From positions 2,529 through 66,528 of the forward strand of contig AGAU01000412.1 in NCBI GenBank assembly GCA_000224765.2: a DNA stretch of 64,000 bases, in the 5' to 3' direction. The notes beneath the pieces were generated by a model that saw only the letters and a program-made list of their open reading frames with translations, made no database searches and had not been told where the DNA came from. This document shows, one piece after another, positions 43,593 to 48,538 of the stretch. The position numbers were made by a program, and so were the translations under genes. Source of the DNA: SAR324 cluster bacterium JCVI-SC AAA005. Its GTDB lineage: Bacteria; SAR324; NAC60-12. How positions within the stretch are numbered: position 1 is the stretch's first letter; each line of letters starts with the position of its first letter.

Positions 43593-43907
43593 GGCTGCCT
43601 CCTTACTAGCAAGTGTTCAATAATATTATGTATTCACTTTAGGAGATGGACAAATGAGAATTCGATAGATTAGAAAAACAAAAAAATCAGATATTTGTAG
43701 CTAGAAAGTTTAAAATTTTTTATATTATTTTTATTCTATTAAATACTAATTTGATAACAAATATTTTCAATTTTAAGTCTAAGATTATTTATAACATATA
43801 TTTAGGGTGAATCCTACTGTAGTTAGGTTTTTATTTTCGCTAAAACTTCCAAAGATAGTTGGTAAATACTTCCTGAAGAGCAATAATTTAGTAAAAAAAT
43901 CATTTGT

Positions 43908-43931
43908 CTAATAGAATTCATATTCTATTAG
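43908..43931. promoter_or_regulatory. perfect 10-4-10 palindrome upstream of the proteorhodopsin gene
   Basis: ctaatagaat-tcat-attctattag read directly, about 280 nt upstream of the ATG at 44211. This is a candidate operator. Palindromes like this arise easily in AT-rich DNA. Confidence 0.2.
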
Positions 43932-44210
43932 GTCTTCGTAGAGGAGAGTTGCTATCTGTTAATTTAAATTTTATAATAATCTCTTTACTCTATCAATAAC
44001 TTAGTATACGCTAATCATTCATGTTTTTGTGGTGAGAAAGTTAGTTTTCAGAGGCTGGAAAATTTTCCGAAAAACTAACAAATCCTTCTATGTGATTGGG
44101 TATAATAGAAACTTGGTTCTGAAGCGGAAAAGTTTTTTGAAAAAAACTGTAGGCTTTCAATTTCTATTCGTGCGCAACCAAAAACTATTTTCTTCATTCA
44201 GGGGAGTGAA

Positions 44211-44906
44211 ATGGAAACTTTGTTAAAGCCAGACGATTTTGTAGGTATTTCTTTTTTCGTTGCAACAATGGCAATGATGGCCTCAGCTGTTTTCTTTTTT
44301 CTAGAAAGAGACAGTGTAGCTGGAAAATGGAAAACTTCAGTGACTGTAGCAGGTTTGATAACAGGCATAGCAGCAGTTCATTACTTTTATATGAGAGATG
44401 TATGGGTTACGACTGGACAGAGCCCAACAGTTTTTAGGTATGTAGACTGGTTACTGACGGTTCCACTACAAATTGTAGAATTTTATTTGATATTGGCGGC
44501 AATTGCAGCTGTGCCAATAATACTTTTTTGGAGGCTTCTAGTCTATTCTCTCATTATGCTGATCTTTGGTTATCTGGGTGAAGCTGGTTTTGTAGATGTA
44601 ACTCTGGGATTTATTCTAGGAATGGTTGGATGGCTCCTAATTCTTTATGAAATCTTTTTTGGTGAAGCTAGTCAAATCAATGCAAATTCTGCAAATACAT
44701 CTTGTCAAAAAGCTTTCCATGCACTACGCCTTATCGTGACTGTGGGATGGGCTATTTATCCCATTGGTTACTTTTGGGGATATATGCTTGATAGTGCAAA
44801 TGTAGAAGCTGTAAATATAATTTATAATTATGCTGATCTAATAAATAAGATGGCTTTCGGCTTAGTAATCTGGGCTGCAGCTAAACAAGATTCAAAAGTT
44901 GAATAA
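44211..44906 (+). CDS. proteorhodopsin (light-driven proton pump type), blue-tuned variant
   Basis: The 231-aa protein aligns residue-for-residue by eye with classical proteorhodopsin: KWKTSVTVAGLITGIAAVHYFYM, SPTVFRYVDWLLTVPLQIVEFYLILAA and IIYNYADLINKMAFGL. With an 18-aa offset, equivalents of H75, D97, T101, E108, D227 and K231 are all present, and position 105 is Gln (CAA 44469-44471). Confidence 0.92.
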   Translation: METLLKPDDFVGISFFVATMAMMASAVFFFLERDSVAGKWKTSVTVAGLITGIAAVHYFYMRDVWVTTGQSPTVFRYVDWLLTVPLQIVEFYLILAAIAAVPIILFWRLLVYSLIMLIFGYLGEAGFVDVTLGFILGMVGWLLILYEIFFGEASQINANSANTSCQKAFHALRLIVTVGWAIYPIGYFWGYMLDSANVEAVNIIYNYADLINKMAFGLVIWAAAKQDSKVE

Positions 44907-46039
44907 ATTTTTGTAAATTATTGACTAACCTTTGATTGGATTGTCAGAAAATATTTTCATACTTTTGGCAATCTAATCTACCACTTCATAACTGTTACTA
45001 AGCCATTATATTTTCAGTATATTCCATATGAAATTACTTCTTGTAAAGCTACTGCAAAGATTACAAATTTAATGGTAACGCACTACTCCTGCTCAACATC
45101 TATTTGGCTAGTTTACACAGAGGGAATATGTTTTAGGTATGAAAATTCCTCCTTAATAAAATGCAAAAATGGTTGAGCACAATTTATTCACAACTAAATA
45201 ACGACGTATTACCCAGCTGACTAAGTTTTAGTCTTACCCACCTTGATAGTGTTAAAACGATTGCTAAACTATTTAAGCTTCAATAAGTTTGTCTAGCTCG
45301 CCCTATCCCGCTCCAGTAAGTATCAATTTCGGCGTGAAAATCAATTCTGACTCAATGACTAATTTAAAGGGATTTCAGAACCTGACCAGTCCAATCGGCT
45401 TGCCACTACAGTGTATTCTCAGCTGCTAAGCGTAACTGGCTTTCACAGCATTCAACTCTTCATCAAGCTTGGCTAACAGCGTGCCAGTATGCAGGGTGGG
45501 AGCTCAGTACTTAGATCGCTTGTACCGTACGAGCTTGAATGATTTCAGAAGTTGCATGATTACTTAATGCGCACGTTCGCATTCAAGCCTATGGGAACTC
45601 TAGGAGACGGATGAACCATAAATCAGGTATATTTAAATTGGGTGTTTGAGCAAAATAGTAACAGGCACTGAATAGTTGCTTTAGAGATTAGGGTATTAGC
45701 AACTACAGTCTGAATTTTGTGAACGCAATTTGTGAAACTACCGTGTGAATGAGAGGGATTTAATTAAGGTTTGTTGTTCTCACTTTATAATGATTCTTAC
45801 CAAACTAGTATAAAACTTAGATTCTCTTTTTTGCAATTGAATCTATACGTTATAGCTTAATCTATATTGTTCAGATTGTGGCAAGCTGGAATAGATATGC
45901 TTATGCAGCAAGTCCATGATTGAGCACATTCGTTGACATAGAATTTGAAAAAAATTGCTAATTACACAAAGAGTTTTAACATTTATTTATCTAAACTAAT
46001 CAAAGCTGACCCAATTATGGTATACTGGTGTTAATAATA

Positions 46040-46834
46040 TCACACACAATTTTCGTATGATTGACCTCTGACCTGACAAAATTTTGGCATCACCGGAGCA
46101 TTTGTAACTCTTTCGTCTTTCCAAGAAAGAGATCTCATATAATGAGCAGCATAGCCTCTTCTTCTCTTAGTTGACAAATTTTTTCCACTGCCATGAATTA
46201 GGAGACTATGGTGAAAGCTAACACTTCCTGAATCTAATTCTATATCTTCGATTTCCCATTGTTTAAATTTTAAAAGTGGTAAAAATCTTTCCATTTTTCT
46301 TTCTCGAGAATCACTATCAAGACCTAAAGTTCCAAATCTGTGTGAGCCTGGTATAAATTTTAAACATCCATTTTCTAACGTGAAATCATCAAGGGCTGTC
46401 CAAGCAGTTATTAAATCTCTCGGAAAAATATCTGTCCAAGAAGCAGAGTCTTGATGCCAATATATTTCAGATCCAACCTCAGGATTTTTCATAAATAACT
46501 GGTCATCATATAACTTTATATCTTTAGTTTCTAATAATTGAGAAATAACATCGACTATTTTTTCATTGACTACGTGATTCCAAAAAATTTGGTCATATAT
46601 CGCAATGGCATAGAGTTTTCTAAGGGTTAAATTTTTTTCAATTGGAGATTCTATATTGACCTCAGGTTCTACCTGAGTACTAGATACAGGAACATGATCT
46701 ATTTTATTATCGCCGATCAACTCTGATTGAAGCTGGAGTCTCCTGATATCATCTTTACATATAAGATTTTCAATTATTAAAAAACCTTTTTGAAAATAAG
46801 AATCTTTTTGAGCTTCAGACAAAAGATATTTCAT
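46040..46834 (-). CDS. phytanoyl-CoA dioxygenase (PhyH) family Fe(II)/2-oxoglutarate-dependent oxygenase
   Basis: 264-aa AT-rich ORF with WHQDSASW (HxD iron motif), a distal SFHHSLLIHGSGKN histidine, and RRRGYAAHY (2OG-binding Arg region). Confidence 0.8.
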   Translation of the reverse strand: MKYLLSEAQKDSYFQKGFLIIENLICKDDIRRLQLQSELIGDNKIDHVPVSSTQVEPEVNIESPIEKNLTLRKLYAIAIYDQIFWNHVVNEKIVDVISQLLETKDIKLYDDQLFMKNPEVGSEIYWHQDSASWTDIFPRDLITAWTALDDFTLENGCLKFIPGSHRFGTLGLDSDSRERKMERFLPLLKFKQWEIEDIELDSGSVSFHHSLLIHGSGKNLSTKRRRGYAAHYMRSLSWKDERVTNAPVMPKFCQVRGQSYENCV

Positions 46835-46899
46835 ATTAAATCCACAAAAAATTTAGTTAAATTGTTCTAATAAATAACAGAAATTTACAGAATTATCTT

Positions 46900-48400
46900 G
46901 AAAGATATTTCGTTCATTCTCTTATATCGAAAGCTACTTTGCAGTTTGATCTTTAATTAGTATACGTTAGTTTATCTAAAAGTAAGATGGTGTAGCTTGT
47001 TAAGCTAACACAATTTACCATTTCTTAAGTCACATTAATCGTCCTATCTTCTCTTCGTAAATGACTAGCCATTGCTACTATTTTCTGCATTTCATCATTC
47101 AAATACCAACATGTTTTTTCCACCACTGCGGTATTAGTTCTAAACATATCTGCAAACTTTCTGTAGCTCAAATCTGCAATAATCTTTTATGTAATCACAT
47201 AGTGCCTTGAGCTGTAGTTCACACTACACTCCTTTCTGTATAATCATTTATCCTAGCTTATATTAGCATTTCAATAAAATGCTAATATATAATTATATTT
47301 TTCAAATTCTCTTTACAATTTGTACTAAATATCAAATTCTATCTCTATTTTCAAATATTTAAACAAGTTTTTGAAGTACTATCTATTTATACAAAAAACC
47401 ATTTTAGATTTTCTTACCTTATTCGTTTCTGCAAGTATACGGGCTAACCTATCTCATAATCTCTCTTAATTCTTGTATTTTTCAATTATAACATTACCCC
47501 TTATTTAACTATTTTATTCAATAATTCTTACCTCAAGATTTACAAAATTCGGTATAAAGTGTAAAACTTATTTTCTATTATATAGTTCATTTTAATTAAA
47601 TTTTTTGGTTTTTTCTTGAACAATAATTCTCTATTTTTCTATACAATCTTTCGTACTCACTATTTTTCAATATTTGCCGTTTTACCACATTTACTCTATC
47701 ATTAACTTTTTTTGAAACCAAATCTATTAATACCTGTTTCTATCTCTTAATACTACTAACATATAAGTCTTTATATTTACCTGTTCATTCTCTATTATTT
47801 TACCTAATTTTACCTGCTGTATTTTTTGTCCTTTACCCATAATACTCTTCTCAATCTGCTCTTCTCAGTTCACTTAATTTTTTTCCAATATATTCTACCA
47901 AGTATTTGGTGTGTTTTTGTAAATCCAAATATCCTTCTTGTACTATATTACCTAATTCTTAATCCTTTCTTCTTACTTACAAATTTTTTTCTACACCCTC
48001 TTTTGCAGTAATATTAAAGAATGTTTTTTCCTGTCTCAATTTTGTATAGAAATTTAGATTAGTATTCTTAGCCAATTCTACTGCTGTTGCTCTACTTGTA
48101 ATCTTTGTATTTCTTCTTACATAGCTCTTCTCTTTAGCACGTCATATTCAAAAATGCCAATATTCACCTTGCTTGTATATGTAGGCATCATCAAATATAG
48201 CTATTTCATTTTCGCCAAATCTCTTTTTCTTTAGTGCTGTTGTACCTCCAAAAATTTTAAAATTCAGCAGCTACTCTTTTGTGTGAGTTTTTATGCAATT
48301 CCAACAAATTTTTCTAAAAAATTCAACGTTGATTAAAATTGTGTAAGTTTTGTGAATTTATTTTATTTAATAATATTAATGTTTAATCTTTCGTAAATTG
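46900..48400 (-). other. ORF-free, very AT-rich tract with relic coding signal on the minus strand (decayed foreign gene or mobile-element remnant)
   Basis: About 1.5 kb with no ORF of 60 aa or more apart from one low-complexity artefact. The plus strand is strongly pyrimidine/T-rich. One minus-strand frame gives long K/E/N/I-rich protein-like stretches broken by many stops (…ITSRATAVELAKNTNLNFYTKLRQEKTFFNITAKEGVEKNL*…QEGYLDLQKHTKYLVEYIGKKLSELRRAD*…VNDRVNVVKRQILKNSEYERLYRKIENY…), plus an HTH-like end (IIADLSYRKFADMFRTNTAVVEK). Confidence 0.4.
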
Positions 48401-48538
48401 TAGTGGCTATACAAATAAAAGATTTAACCCACTGAAGTCAATCGTTTCCACTCTGCCTTACACTCATGATACTTGATTCATAGAGCTAAGAATGGGAAGA
48501 ATTATCTCTGCTCAACAACGCTTTACCTATACATAAAA

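Follow-up and report, generated by a model that had tools for sequence, protein, structure and literature searches.

The AT-rich stretch that carries a proteorhodopsin (PR) gene in this SAR324 contig is, as we read it, what remains of an integrative element, site-specific and resident in SAR324, that brought the PR gene with it; we give this interpretation a probability of roughly 0.78. The window is the whole 64-kb stretch of DNA that was analysed, and positions are numbered along it. A preliminary description had placed a horizontally acquired, AT-rich island of low coding density at 43593-48538. Its right edge becomes ~48413; its left edge moves out to ~42965, because the GC-normal DUF6641 gene belongs to the inserted DNA, which thus spans about 42965-48413 (~5.45 kb; Table 1). 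Horizontal acquisition itself is borne out by deviant GC and GC3, att-like repeats, a dead integrase of a recurrent family and PR relatives in genomes of 32% GC.

The GC of 43593-48472 is 0.314, against 0.459 in the remaining window; the lowest value among other 4.9-kb windows is 0.405 (mean 0.462, sd 0.023), which puts the island ~6 sd below. The ORF-poor stretches are there as claimed, measuring 618 bp (43593-44210), 1133 bp (44907-46039) and 1638-1704 bp (46835-48472/48538). GC3 deviates as strongly, at 0.259 for PR and 0.215 for the PhyH-family gene compared with 0.452 +/- 0.062 for the mean of 41 other window genes. One part of the AT-richness comes from decay, not foreignness, because the integrase pseudogene has a GC of 0.274 versus 0.43-0.44 in intact homologues, and a low GC (0.19-0.38) is also found in the window's other intergenic DNA.

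Table 1. Features of the PR island and its flanks, with window positions
Feature	Positions	Strand	Basis
Host flank, pentapeptide-repeat protein gene	42212-42922	-	Pfam Pentapeptide 1e-48; GC 0.489
att-like core repeat TGTATAGCAAATGCAATTTT, DUF6641 side	42945-42964	-	16/19 match to integrase-side copy
Conserved non-coding terminal segment, downstream of DUF6641	42973-43157	-	83-84% nt identity to L118, L112
DUF6641 gene, 144 aa, intact, terminal core gene	43158-43592	-	Pfam PF20346 1.4e-17
Conserved 5' region of DUF6641 module	43596-43662	-	77-90% nt identity, 19 other element copies
AT-rich DNA upstream of PR, GC 0.27	43663-44210	+	Composition, promoter/RBS scan
Proteorhodopsin, 231 aa, retained cargo	44211-44906	+	Pfam Bac_rhodopsin 4e-42; 4JQ6 1.6e-90
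Non-coding PR-PhyH spacer, 1.1 kb	44907-46039	.	No ORF >46 aa
PhyH-family Fe(II)/2-oxoglutarate oxygenase, 264 aa, second cargo gene	46040-46834	-	Pfam PF05721 1.7e-31
Tyrosine-recombinase (integrase) pseudogene by homology, full length, inward-reading	47031-48240	-	tblastn vs element integrases
Conserved non-coding leader upstream of integrase	48245-48375	-	73% nt identity to L118 counterpart
att-like core repeat TGTATAGCCACTACAATTT, integrase side	48395-48413	-	Repeat search, element comparison
Host flank, YitT/DUF2179 membrane protein gene	48539-49435	+	Pfam 1e-49; GC3 0.495

The 1.6 kb of relic sequence, described earlier as a decayed foreign gene, is real gene wreckage and, judged by homology, is a full-length tyrosine-integrase pseudogene of the element. 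In a tblastn comparison with ORFs of locus L118, segments of 147, 54 and 200 aa match at 70% (E 3e-57), 59% and 40% identity, respectively, and the relic covers residues 4-412 of intact 413-aa proteins at loci L119 and L124 (E 5e-27 and 5e-15); the intact 413-aa protein scores 43.5 bits against Pfam Phage_integrase (cut-off 27.1). It is interrupted by 20 or more in-frame stops and shifts frame near 47600, its ATG has become ACA, and its 'KTYWH' motif now reads 'KTCWY'. No trace of the element's other core genes was detectable in the window.

At the opposite end lies the DUF6641 gene, whose homologues (73-83% aa) occur on at least 15 contigs, always bordering AT-rich DNA. Thirteen loci include DNA upstream of the homologue; in nearly all of them this DNA is AT-rich next to the gene, with 500-bp GC values mostly of 0.25-0.40, and GC rises to 0.43-0.54 from the DUF6641 gene onward. 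Loci at the same site have flanks 95-100% identical and DUF6641 genes only 83-94% identical; DUF6641 is therefore element-borne. Its AlphaFold model is confident (pLDDT 93.9) and has no match in the structure libraries searched, and its pN/pS within the population is 0.63. At least eight other SAR324 sites show this layout of inward integrase, AT-rich cargo, DUF6641 and att-like repeats, with flanks that are also named SAR324. Core genes are common to these elements and cargo varies, including a C5 DNA methylase, PEP mutase with phosphonopyruvate decarboxylase, Acyl_transf_3, a carbamoyltransferase and a spermine-synthase-like protein; one chromosomal site carries different cargo and different DUF6641 alleles. 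None of the other family members examined has a rhodopsin, and none of the family was found in IMG/VR viral contigs.

Homology between elements stops at defined points, and direct repeats lie exactly there. In the window, the homology of the terminal segment ends at the motif GTAGGTAATTGAAAAAA (42973-42989), and the flanks of L118 and L112 are unrelated. A search for direct repeats near the island edges, proposed in the preliminary description, gave an att-like pair; it came from an unbiased best-19-mer search and is imperfect (16/19), a score that 5 of 200 shuffles (2.5%) reach when it is taken alone. The DUF6641-side copy, which precedes the start of the pentapeptide-repeat gene by ~22 bp, is in a position equivalent to the repeats of L118 and L119. 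The integrase-side copy is 125 bp from the YitT ATG and 173 bp from the integrase start, upstream of both; the offsets from the integrase start are -176 in L118 and -173 in L119. At another chromosomal site, A, the repeat falls within the 5' end of a host gene, whose displaced original start (MTNSLCIRNAT) can still be recognised at the other junction. The window locus yielded no empty-site allele.

Living members of the family have an inward tyrosine integrase ~175 bp from one end, followed by optional core genes (a second small integrase-domain protein, DUF6626, an AAA ATPase and several unknowns), then an AT-rich cargo block, with DUF6641 and 130-230 bp of conserved terminal DNA at the opposite end. 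Recombination would pass through a ~19-bp core, duplicated at both junctions. In the ancestor of the present SAR324 population, an element carrying a blue PR and PhyH of low-GC origin would have entered the ~170-bp divergent promoter region between the pentapeptide-repeat gene and yitT. Inactivation of the integrase would have locked the cargo in place; PR, and in this population PhyH and DUF6641 too, would then have been maintained by selection, while AT-biased mutation eroded the integrase and other cargo to ORF-free DNA. We infer that the element already carried PR and PhyH when it arrived and did not gain them by later insertion.

DUF6641 could instead mark a host recombination hot spot, or the flanking conserved modules could exchange by homology, with the relic incidental and PR acquired by cassette replacement. 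This is unlikely, even with several loci in its favour: AT-rich blocks beside DUF6641 at L122, L127/L130 and L143 have no integrase within 5-6 kb, L115, L116 and L118 have common cargo in different flanks, and in a sister population the DUF6641 module and PR-upstream DNA are replaced by a 46%-identical allele, the rest being homologous. However, DUF6641 alleles do not follow the chromosomal site, in complete copies the distance between integrase and junction repeat is constant, and the displaced host-gene 5' end at site A is a signature of site-specific insertion. The two processes are not exclusive, and recombination may reshuffle cargo after integration.

The low GC of the dead integrase and of other intergenic DNA would also fit native SAR324 DNA that became AT-rich by decay in a poorly expressed region under AT-biased mutation, with no horizontal transfer. 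We regard this as improbable: PR and PhyH are under purifying selection and yet their GC3 values are 3-4 sd lower than in every neighbouring gene under selection, an integrase and direct repeats bracket the segment, and the closest relatives of both genes are in other lineages and other contexts. Moreover, the YitT homologues (76-84%) of other SAR324 lineages have no island beside them, and their contexts are dense and unrelated.

The sister population, 94-97% identical, has the same insertion and the same integrase-killing mutations, and it retains the repeats (19/20 on the DUF6641 side, 17/19 on the integrase side) and the pentapeptide-repeat gene (96% nt identity). Flank-gene pS between the two populations is 0.08-0.13, and the integrase was already dead before they diverged to a flank pS of ~0.1; a recent module is thus not supported. 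Close relatives with the same genes in the same place, at normal coding density, had been named beforehand as an argument against acquisition. The sister does have these genes in this place, but its locus is an equally low-density wreck, and therefore points to an old acquisition and not against acquisition. The pS of PR is 0.35, three times higher than that of the flanks, which a single common insertion does not by itself explain. Of the PR-upstream DNA only 44063-44210 aligns to the sister; the rest was replaced there along with the DUF6641 module, so a promoter-like site found by scanning (43949-43977) stays a candidate. A GGGGAG ribosome-binding site precedes the PR ATG.

PR is intact and, as first described, has all the pump residues: in an end-to-end alignment with the blue PR Med12BPR (PDB 4JQ6), the equivalents of H75, D97, T101, Q105, E108, D227 and K231 are all kept. 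It shares the helix-C motif RYxDWLxTVPLQIxEF, Gln at the spectral-tuning position and the DLINK Schiff-base lysine motif. By alignment this is the DTE motif with Q105 of blue-absorbing proton pumps, and PR is presumably a light-driven proton pump in the cell. Other structures compared were the blue BPR HOT75 (4KLY) and the green PRs 7B03 and 2L6X; the window PR differs in sequence from 4JQ6 and 4KLY, and its blue type is assigned from sequence. Its nearest relatives are metagenomic (84-87% aa) and lie in GC-32% genomes in unrelated gene contexts. The exact protein occurs in 89 blocks of the assembly collection, from which 23 carrier contigs were read. Between the sister populations pS is 0.349 and pN 0.0075 (ratio 0.02), indicating strong purifying selection.

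The PhyH gene, correctly recognised beforehand as an intact Fe(II)/2-oxoglutarate (2OG) oxygenase, has an H-Q-D...H triad (H-x-D...H) and an Arg that align to human PHYH (2A1X). With the phytanoyl-CoA dioxygenase family (human PHYH, PHYHD1, MysH, EctD) it shares the double-stranded beta-helix, the triad and the 2OG-binding Arg, but it is distant from characterised members (best PDB E-value 1e-14), and the context of its nearest relatives is a sugar- or polyol-type catabolic operon, not isoprenoid or chromophore pathways. The preliminary description had asked whether PhyH is a functional partner of PR. There is very little probability that the two genes form a light-harvesting module, acquired and kept jointly, in which PhyH modifies the chromophore, a carotenoid or a lipid. 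Both are intact, AT-rich, adjacent and fixed in the population, where PhyH has a pN/pS of 0.18, and the family includes enzymes for isoprenoid-derived substrates (2A1X). Yet the proposed recurrence beside PR genes is absent from all 86 other PR loci (up to 10 kb of flank each), and the closest PhyH relatives (78-81% aa) sit between Gfo/Idh/MocA oxidoreductases beside an Opp-type ABC transporter, in an operon without PR. PR and PhyH point towards each other across a 1.1-kb spacer, which evolves neutrally. In the sister population PR is kept at 98.3% aa identity while PhyH is a pseudogene (three frames, two stops). Because of this and the 0/86 linkage, PhyH is in all likelihood a hitch-hiker and not a PR partner.

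The spacer matches nothing in Pfam or Rfam, nor any of the fetched loci by tblastx or blastn; its pi is 0.0134, compared with 0.003-0.005 in genes, its identity to the sister population is 76%, and it is probably decayed cargo. An assembly or binning chimera, joining low-GC DNA of another organism to a SAR324 contig, would fit the abrupt GC change and the split state of several window genes, but its probability is negligible with junctions identical across >20 independent assemblies, both of them at 98-100% identity in assemblies from different samples (TARA, ENA, Logan, NCBI), and present also in the sister population.

Among known systems, the tycheposons of Prochlorococcus (Hackl et al., bioRxiv 10.1101/2020.12.28.424599) are similar as cargo-carrying integrative elements of oligotrophic-ocean bacteria, with a tyrosine recombinase facing inward from one end and att repeats at the two junctions; their cargo is adaptive, and their degenerate remnants accumulate into flexible islands. 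Related elements are reported there in 'Deltaproteobacteria', the former class of SAR324. The two differ in several respects: tycheposons target seven tRNA/tmRNA genes, whereas the SAR324 element sits in 5' ends or promoters of protein-coding genes (the 64-kb window contains no tRNA gene), has no primase, helicase or polymerase domain by Pfam and several core proteins without any match, and has the DUF6641 gene at its opposite end. Classical integrase-bounded islands and defective prophage-like elements share the deviant GC, the edge tyrosine integrase, the flanking direct repeats, cargo kept past integrase decay (domestication) and strain-varying cargo at one site. Unlike them, the SAR324 element has no tRNA target and no phage structural or conjugation genes, is small (5-8 kb) and has a conserved terminal gene, DUF6641, with that unmatched fold.

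The PR had been called an orphan, which is right within the window, where no carotenoid or retinal gene families were found among scanned ORFs >=120 aa (the ABC-transporter genes at 33166-37228 were covered via pre-computed annotation of identical contigs, not the ORF scan). Beyond the window the term does not apply to the clade: according to passages of PMC8364033 and PMC9031357, blh and crt genes adjoin a second, xanthorhodopsin-like gene in SAR324 subclade A / 2A genomes, and PR would use retinal from this cluster elsewhere in the genome. Passages of PMC8364033 also report that SAR324 PR is known with flanks not conserved among genomes and retinal genes elsewhere, and that its transcripts were below detection at Station ALOHA. 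The host group and the DTE-Q blue-tuned PR match those of epipelagic subclade A / clade 2A in the passages of Boeuf et al. 2021 (PMC8364033), Malfertheiner et al. 2022 (PMC9031357) and Olson et al. 2018 (PMC5864233). Those text passages do not mention an AT-rich island, an integrase pseudogene, a DUF6641 boundary, att-like repeats or a PhyH neighbour. As far as these go, DTE-Q PRs with non-conserved flanks in SAR324 are already published, and the identity of the wreckage as an integrase element is new. The window GC of 0.46 fits the 45.6% given there for subclade A.

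The island belongs to a known kind, the tyrosine-recombinase integrative elements, of which it is a degenerate example. It carries the marks of a genomic island: an integrase (now a pseudogene) at one edge, att-like direct repeats at the junctions, deviant GC and GC3, and a backbone that recurs elsewhere with differing cargo, and the horizontal acquisition suggested in the preliminary description is thereby supported. The right edge given there was nearly correct (~48413), while the left edge moves 0.6 kb outward from 43593, to ~42965, and takes in a gene for a DUF6641 protein. 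The arrangement, with both junctions, recurs at 98-100% identity in many independent marine assemblies, so the island is not an assembly artefact.

Features of the element in the window, with the att-like repeats of two related elements (metagenome loci L118 and L119). Repeats are from an unbiased search in which 240 bp of sequence 5' of the integrase was compared with 300 bp past DUF6641 for the best 19-mer match, scored against 200 shuffles.
Feature	Position	Strand	Remarks
Integrative element	~42965-48413		5.45 kb
DUF6641 gene, 144 aa	43158-43592	-	left edge of island
Proteorhodopsin gene	44211-44906	+	
PhyH oxygenase gene	46040-46834	-	
Integrase pseudogene	47031-48240	-	homology to 413-aa Phage_integrase proteins; homologues PF00589-positive
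Window repeat, integrase end	48395-48413	-	TGTATAGCCACTACAATTT
Window repeat, DUF6641 end	42945-42964	-	TGTATAGCAAATGCAATTT(T)
Window repeat, pair	-173 from integrase start, +193 past DUF6641		16/19; 5/200 shuffles reach score
L118 repeat, pair	-176 from integrase start, +206 past DUF6641		17/19; 0/200 shuffles reach score
L119 repeat, pair	-173 from integrase start, +141 past DUF6641		16/19; 2/200 shuffles reach score

GC content is 0.325 in the element vs 0.459 outside it. The ~5 kb first described as more AT-rich than its flanks is indeed so: GC is 0.314 over 43593-48472 vs 0.459 in the remainder of the window (0.448 for the whole 64 kb), and the lowest GC of any other 4.9-kb window is 0.405 (mean 0.462, sd 0.023). 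GC3 is 0.259 in the proteorhodopsin (PR) gene and 0.215 in the PhyH gene vs 0.452 ± 0.062 in 41 other window genes, so that by sliding-window GC and GC3 the island and both of its intact genes deviate strongly from the rest of the window. The three ORF-poor stretches first given as 0.6, 1.1 and 1.6 kb measure 618, 1133 and roughly 1640-1700 bp. Some of the AT-richness is secondary, made in place by decay, because GC of the integrase is 0.274 in the dead window copy vs 0.43-0.44 in intact copies (0.36 in the frameshifted L118 copy); this is a caution for composition-based calls of horizontal transfer. Within the window population, nucleotide diversity is 0.0053 in the PhyH gene, 0.0025 in the flanking yitT gene and 0.0034 in the PR gene, the latter biased downward by the choice of contigs with the exact PR protein. 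At 0.013-0.014 the two big gaps resemble the rest of the intergenic DNA, and so are evolving free of constraint.

The stretch taken earlier for a decayed foreign gene is a full-length integrase relic. A 413-aa protein encoded upstream of DUF6641 homologues matches Pfam Phage_integrase (43.5 bits vs a cut-off of 27.1), and the relic is homologous to it over residues 4-412, with 70% identity to the L118 copy over 147 aa (E 3e-57) and 35-36% identity to the intact proteins of L119 (L119:3358-4599) and of L124, a further related element (E 5e-27 and 5e-15). The relic has lost its ATG, has at least 20 in-frame stops and one frame change, and carries Cys in place of the Tyr, presumably the catalytic residue, of the homologues' C-terminal 'KTYWH' motif. 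It was recognised only once loci around DUF6641 homologues were compared: six-frame translations of the relic DNA matched nothing in Pfam or PHROGs, blastn against 50,697 phage records found no match, and tblastx comparison with the DNA around 86 other PR loci was negative too. The 1.1-kb PR-PhyH spacer had no match by Pfam, Rfam, tblastx or blastn.

A metagenome scan placed DUF6641 homologues (73-83% aa identity) on at least 15 contigs with flanks unlike those of the window (L111-L135; contigs JACLAC01/JACLAD01 and JGI). They edge AT-rich variable islands of 2-8 kb at no fewer than 8 SAR324 chromosomal sites, with the same backbone and at least six types of cargo; in three loci, cluster mates of the flank genes at 90% identity or more are named SAR324. 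At nearly all of 13 loci with upstream sequence, AT-rich DNA lies just 5' of DUF6641, with GC mostly 0.25-0.40 in each 500 bp, and GC is 0.43-0.54 from the homologue onward. The complete copies, L119 and L124, have the order integrase, 194-aa integrase-domain protein, 163-aa protein, DUF6626 and 115-aa protein, followed in some copies by an AAA ATPase and three further uncharacterised proteins, then by AT-rich cargo, DUF6641 and finally 130-230 bp of conserved non-coding DNA. The integrase reads inward from a start ~173 bp from its junction, and the cargo lies toward the opposite end. Cargo seen includes a C5 DNA methylase with a partner gene, a PEP mutase/cytidylyltransferase with phosphonopyruvate decarboxylase, an Acyl_transf_3 protein, a carbamoyltransferase, a spermine-synthase-like membrane protein and membrane proteins of GC 0.26-0.27. 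Loci at one site (site A: L117, L119, L121, L127 and L130; site B: L120, L123 and L124) have flanks 95-100% identical but DUF6641 only 83-94% identical and differing cargo; DUF6641 therefore belongs to the element and not to the host. Some AT-rich blocks next to DUF6641 have no integrase nearby (L122, L127 and L143); homologous exchange of cassettes may have produced them, or they may be fossils of greater age.

There are 802 representative relatives of DUF6641, and almost every one is a stand-alone protein of 130-170 aa. An AlphaFold model built from the alignment reaches pLDDT 93.9 (49 for the single-sequence model), and searches of PDB and BFVD gave no similar structure; our guess is that the protein acts in regulation or in the directionality of recombination. 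A TAL-effector-like assignment (phmmer E 1e-7) was rejected, as it is the sum of nine sub-threshold repeats, each of at most 6.5 bits with i-Evalue of 78 or more, and the predicted fold is alpha/beta, not a solenoid. The literature searched mentions neither DUF6641 nor DUF6626. As it stands at the edge of many AT-rich variable islands, DUF6641 is a practical marker for the flexible genome of this abundant uncultured ocean phylum.

Homology between elements at different sites ends at defined points on both sides, and short direct repeats lie exactly there. The search for direct repeats at the island ends thus gave a positive result (Table); the window pair taken alone is weakly significant, and its position agrees with those in L118 and L119. 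A generic repeat finder did not single out these cores from chance repeats in AT-rich DNA. At site A the repeat is inside the first codons of an amidohydrolase-like gene. This gene now takes its start from the element (MKKPELCIRNATV...), and its former start, MTNSLCIRNAT, has been displaced to the other junction and is still present there, a classic footprint of site-specific integration. The window insert occupies the ~170-bp would-be divergent promoter region between the pentapeptide-repeat gene and yitT. Both element ends (48300-48345 and 43000-43030 in the window; also L119 and L124) carry a similar motif, (C)TTACACA(C)...AAATT, for example cttacacactataaattttt near the integrase and gttacacactggaaatttct beyond DUF6641, a candidate arm-type or terminal binding site for the integrase.

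A search via YitT found no empty site: every contig reaching far enough upstream carries the island, and the next YitT relatives (76-84%) are not syntenic. At the other sites the occupant differs between strains. No member of the family was found in excised form or with an empty site; mobility is inferred from architecture.

The family resembles tycheposons in having an inward-facing site-specific integrase at one end together with adaptive cargo. Tycheposons, compared here by description, however target tRNA or tmRNA genes and leave partial tRNA copies, whereas the junctions of the window element family are in promoters or 5' ends of protein-coding genes; the accessory genes also differ, the only Pfam families in the element core being Phage_integrase, AAA and DUF6626. 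Scans of the 64-kb window for tRNA and tmRNA genes, Rfam families and terminators gave no tRNA or tmRNA, no Rfam hit and nothing else relevant. Unlike an integron, the region 42.8-49 kb has no repeated attC-like element, and the integrase is at the far end from the cargo-variable side. As for phage-type genes, the one Pfam match is a sub-threshold Gp10A-like hit in a core protein (16 bits vs a cut-off of 27), and IMG/VR contigs hold no relative of DUF6641 or of the integrase.

PR is among the most widely transferred genes of the surface ocean, and its vehicles are rarely caught. Here the PR gene lies within recognisable element boundaries, with remains of the integrase that presumably inserted it, and intact relatives of the element exist in SAR324. 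A tentative reading, to which we give a probability of roughly 0.35, is that SAR324 hosts undescribed small cargo shuttles, with an integrase at one end, a DUF6641 gene of novel fold at the other and protein-coding 5'-end or promoter targets in place of tRNAs, that brought and fixed phototrophy genes, namely the window PR and an RPE65-family carotenoid oxygenase in the decayed L143 element. If true, it would supply a concrete mechanism for the long-inferred horizontal spread of PR. The value of the locus is as a concrete vehicle of PR transfer and as a natural experiment on retention after domestication.

The L143 block (L143:4100-9900, also in L144-L150) is from another abundant SAR324 population, at a site adjoining a purH-like gene. 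A decayed DUF6641 (38-40% identity, with stops) lies there beside AT-rich DNA that encodes the RPE65-family oxygenase (PF03055, 3e-103) together with a metallo-beta-lactamase-fold protein and a LytTR fragment; the site showed no integrase relic. The RPE65-family gene may be related to retinal and may have come in on an island of this kind.

The seven-helix domain of the PR is present (Bac_rhodopsin PF01036, 4.2e-42, residues 11-225 of 231), and the alignment with the blue proteorhodopsin 4JQ6 (1.6e-90) is full-length. Equivalents of His75, Asp97, Thr101, Gln105, Glu108, Asp227 and Lys231 are retained, as the preliminary description had it for the pump residues. In helix G, NYADLINKMAFG with the Schiff-base lysine K231 and counter-ion D227 corresponds to NLADLINKAAFG in 4JQ6 and NLADFVNKILFG in green PR, and the H75 region 'AAVHYFYMRD' and the D97/T101/E108 segment FRYVDWLLTVPLQIVEF match 4JQ6 and 7B03 column for column. 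Position 105 is Gln, the blue-tuning residue ('VPLQIVEF' vs 'VPLLICEF', with Leu, in green PR). By sequence criteria this is a predicted DTE proton-pumping, blue-absorbing type.

It is an ordinary, previously reported SAR324 blue proteorhodopsin. DTE-Q proteorhodopsins with flanks that differ between genomes have been described in surface SAR324 (Boeuf et al. 2021, PMC8364033; Malfertheiner et al. 2022, PMC9031357), and by the same accounts the SAR324 retinal pathway adjoins a second, xanthorhodopsin-like gene. The 'orphan' label thus applies only inside the window, where no carotenoid or retinal gene family was found among scanned ORFs of at least 120 aa or in the pre-computed annotation of identical contigs; it fails elsewhere, as published SAR324 genomes carry the pathway. 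SAR324 PR transcripts at Station ALOHA were given as below detection (PMC8364033). Window GC fits epipelagic subclade A of Boeuf et al. (GC 45.6%), which is clade 2A of Malfertheiner et al. The NCBI MAG record of MBT90459.1 (231 aa), another protein in the 90%-identity cluster of the window PR, calls it a 'biphenyl 2,3-dioxygenase'; the name is plainly wrong, and because of it a search by keyword could miss SAR324 rhodopsins.

The second intact gene is, as first described, an Fe(II)/2OG oxygenase: it matches PF05721 at 1.7e-31, and its 'WHQD', 'LLIHGSG' and 'RRRGYAAHY' align with the iron triad (H-x-D...H) and the 2OG-binding Arg of 2A1X, which we take to be H175/D177, H264 and R275. That it might be a functional partner of PR, a question raised at the outset, is not borne out. 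No PhyH homologue occurs in the available flanking DNA (up to 10 kb) of the other PR loci (0/86); PR and PhyH are convergent, with 1.1 kb of drifting DNA between them; the nearest PhyH relatives (78-81% aa) are in contigs of GC 37-39%, in an ABC-transporter/Gfo-Idh-MocA operon; and in the sister population, a second SAR324 population with the same insertion, PhyH is split over three frames with two stops. PhyH is therefore a co-transferred passenger, not coupled to PR, and one still useful in the window population (pN/pS 0.18). The operon context of these relatives is the only clue to substrate. On the contigs that carry them (L097-L101), a 20-kb stretch has three genes of the PhyH family; several Gfo/Idh/MocA oxidoreductases, a GntR regulator, a BNR sialidase-like gene and an Opp-type ABC transporter are also present. 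This looks like a catabolic island and hints at the usual role of this PhyH clade. The big gaps of the window island as Gfo/Idh/MocA remains were rejected: tblastn found no match and nucleotide homology stops at the PhyH borders (46037-46845).

The sister population was reached through a second PR variant (232 aa), whose contigs share the flanks of the window locus at 94-97% nt identity and also its island, present in 6 of 6 contexts with both core repeats (17/19 and 19/20). There a 46%-identical, stop-containing allele has taken the place of the DUF6641 module and of the DNA 5' of PR. The two integrase relics share stops ('HF*I*RAKEK' vs 'HF*M*RAKEK', and 'KNL*VRR.D*E'), a two-codon deletion and the Tyr-to-Cys change, which places the death of the integrase before the population split. 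Both populations have an intact PR, 98.3% identical in aa (pS 0.349, pN 0.0075, ratio 0.02, a comparison free of the exact-protein selection bias). The pair is thus a natural experiment in which, after the shuttle died, selection maintained the pump and the oxygenase decayed in one lineage. Between the window and the sister contig L152, PR differs by 0.35 at synonymous sites and the relics by 21-24% in raw sequence, both ~3x the synonymous divergence of flank genes (0.08-0.13); the excess could reflect a higher local mutation rate, or recombination homogenising the flanks.

The closest PRs outside both populations share 84-87% aa and 74.5% nt identity with the window PR, with no homology beyond the gene, and sit in GC-32% genomes labelled SAR324 (SAG AG-404-P05), in the context adh_short / PR / cupredoxin / NDH-2, with PR GC3 of 0.27-0.28 that matches their own genome. 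For the closest PR and PhyH relatives alike, dS is saturated and dN is about 0.12. Cargo composition is that of a low-GC donor, but with gene-only homology and saturated dS neither sampled lineage is a recent donor, and on the same values the low-GC PR lineage (L011 type) was rejected as one.

Other irregular stretches were seen in the window. The region 22877-24234 looks like a second small foreign insertion; its 322-aa ORF (23052-24020, -) has GC3 0.272 and no Pfam match, and flanking intergenic GC is 0.19-0.23. An SDR gene (24792-25516; 155 aa + 128 aa) and an aldehyde dehydrogenase gene (25780-27088; 201 aa + 288 aa) are each split in overlapping ORFs with complementary domain halves, and are either frameshift pseudogenes or MAG consensus errors. 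Between an FMN-dependent dehydrogenase and the pentapeptide gene, 1.7 kb (40510-42211) hold a CxxCH ORF (41248-41637; 129, 148 or 151 aa by strain) and a 64-aa ORF, neither with a Pfam match, probably a broken cytochrome c gene. Just outside the element, 49436-52678 is another decaying or variable stretch, 3.2 kb with small ORFs only (up to 133 aa, none with a Pfam match); no other part of the locus is as diverse as 49436-51100 (pi 0.029, 35 indel columns), and a ~370-bp structural variant is found at 51290 in L007 and L009. The window has three pentapeptide-repeat genes (42212-42922, 57565-58332 and 62456-63712), one of which abuts the attachment site of the element.
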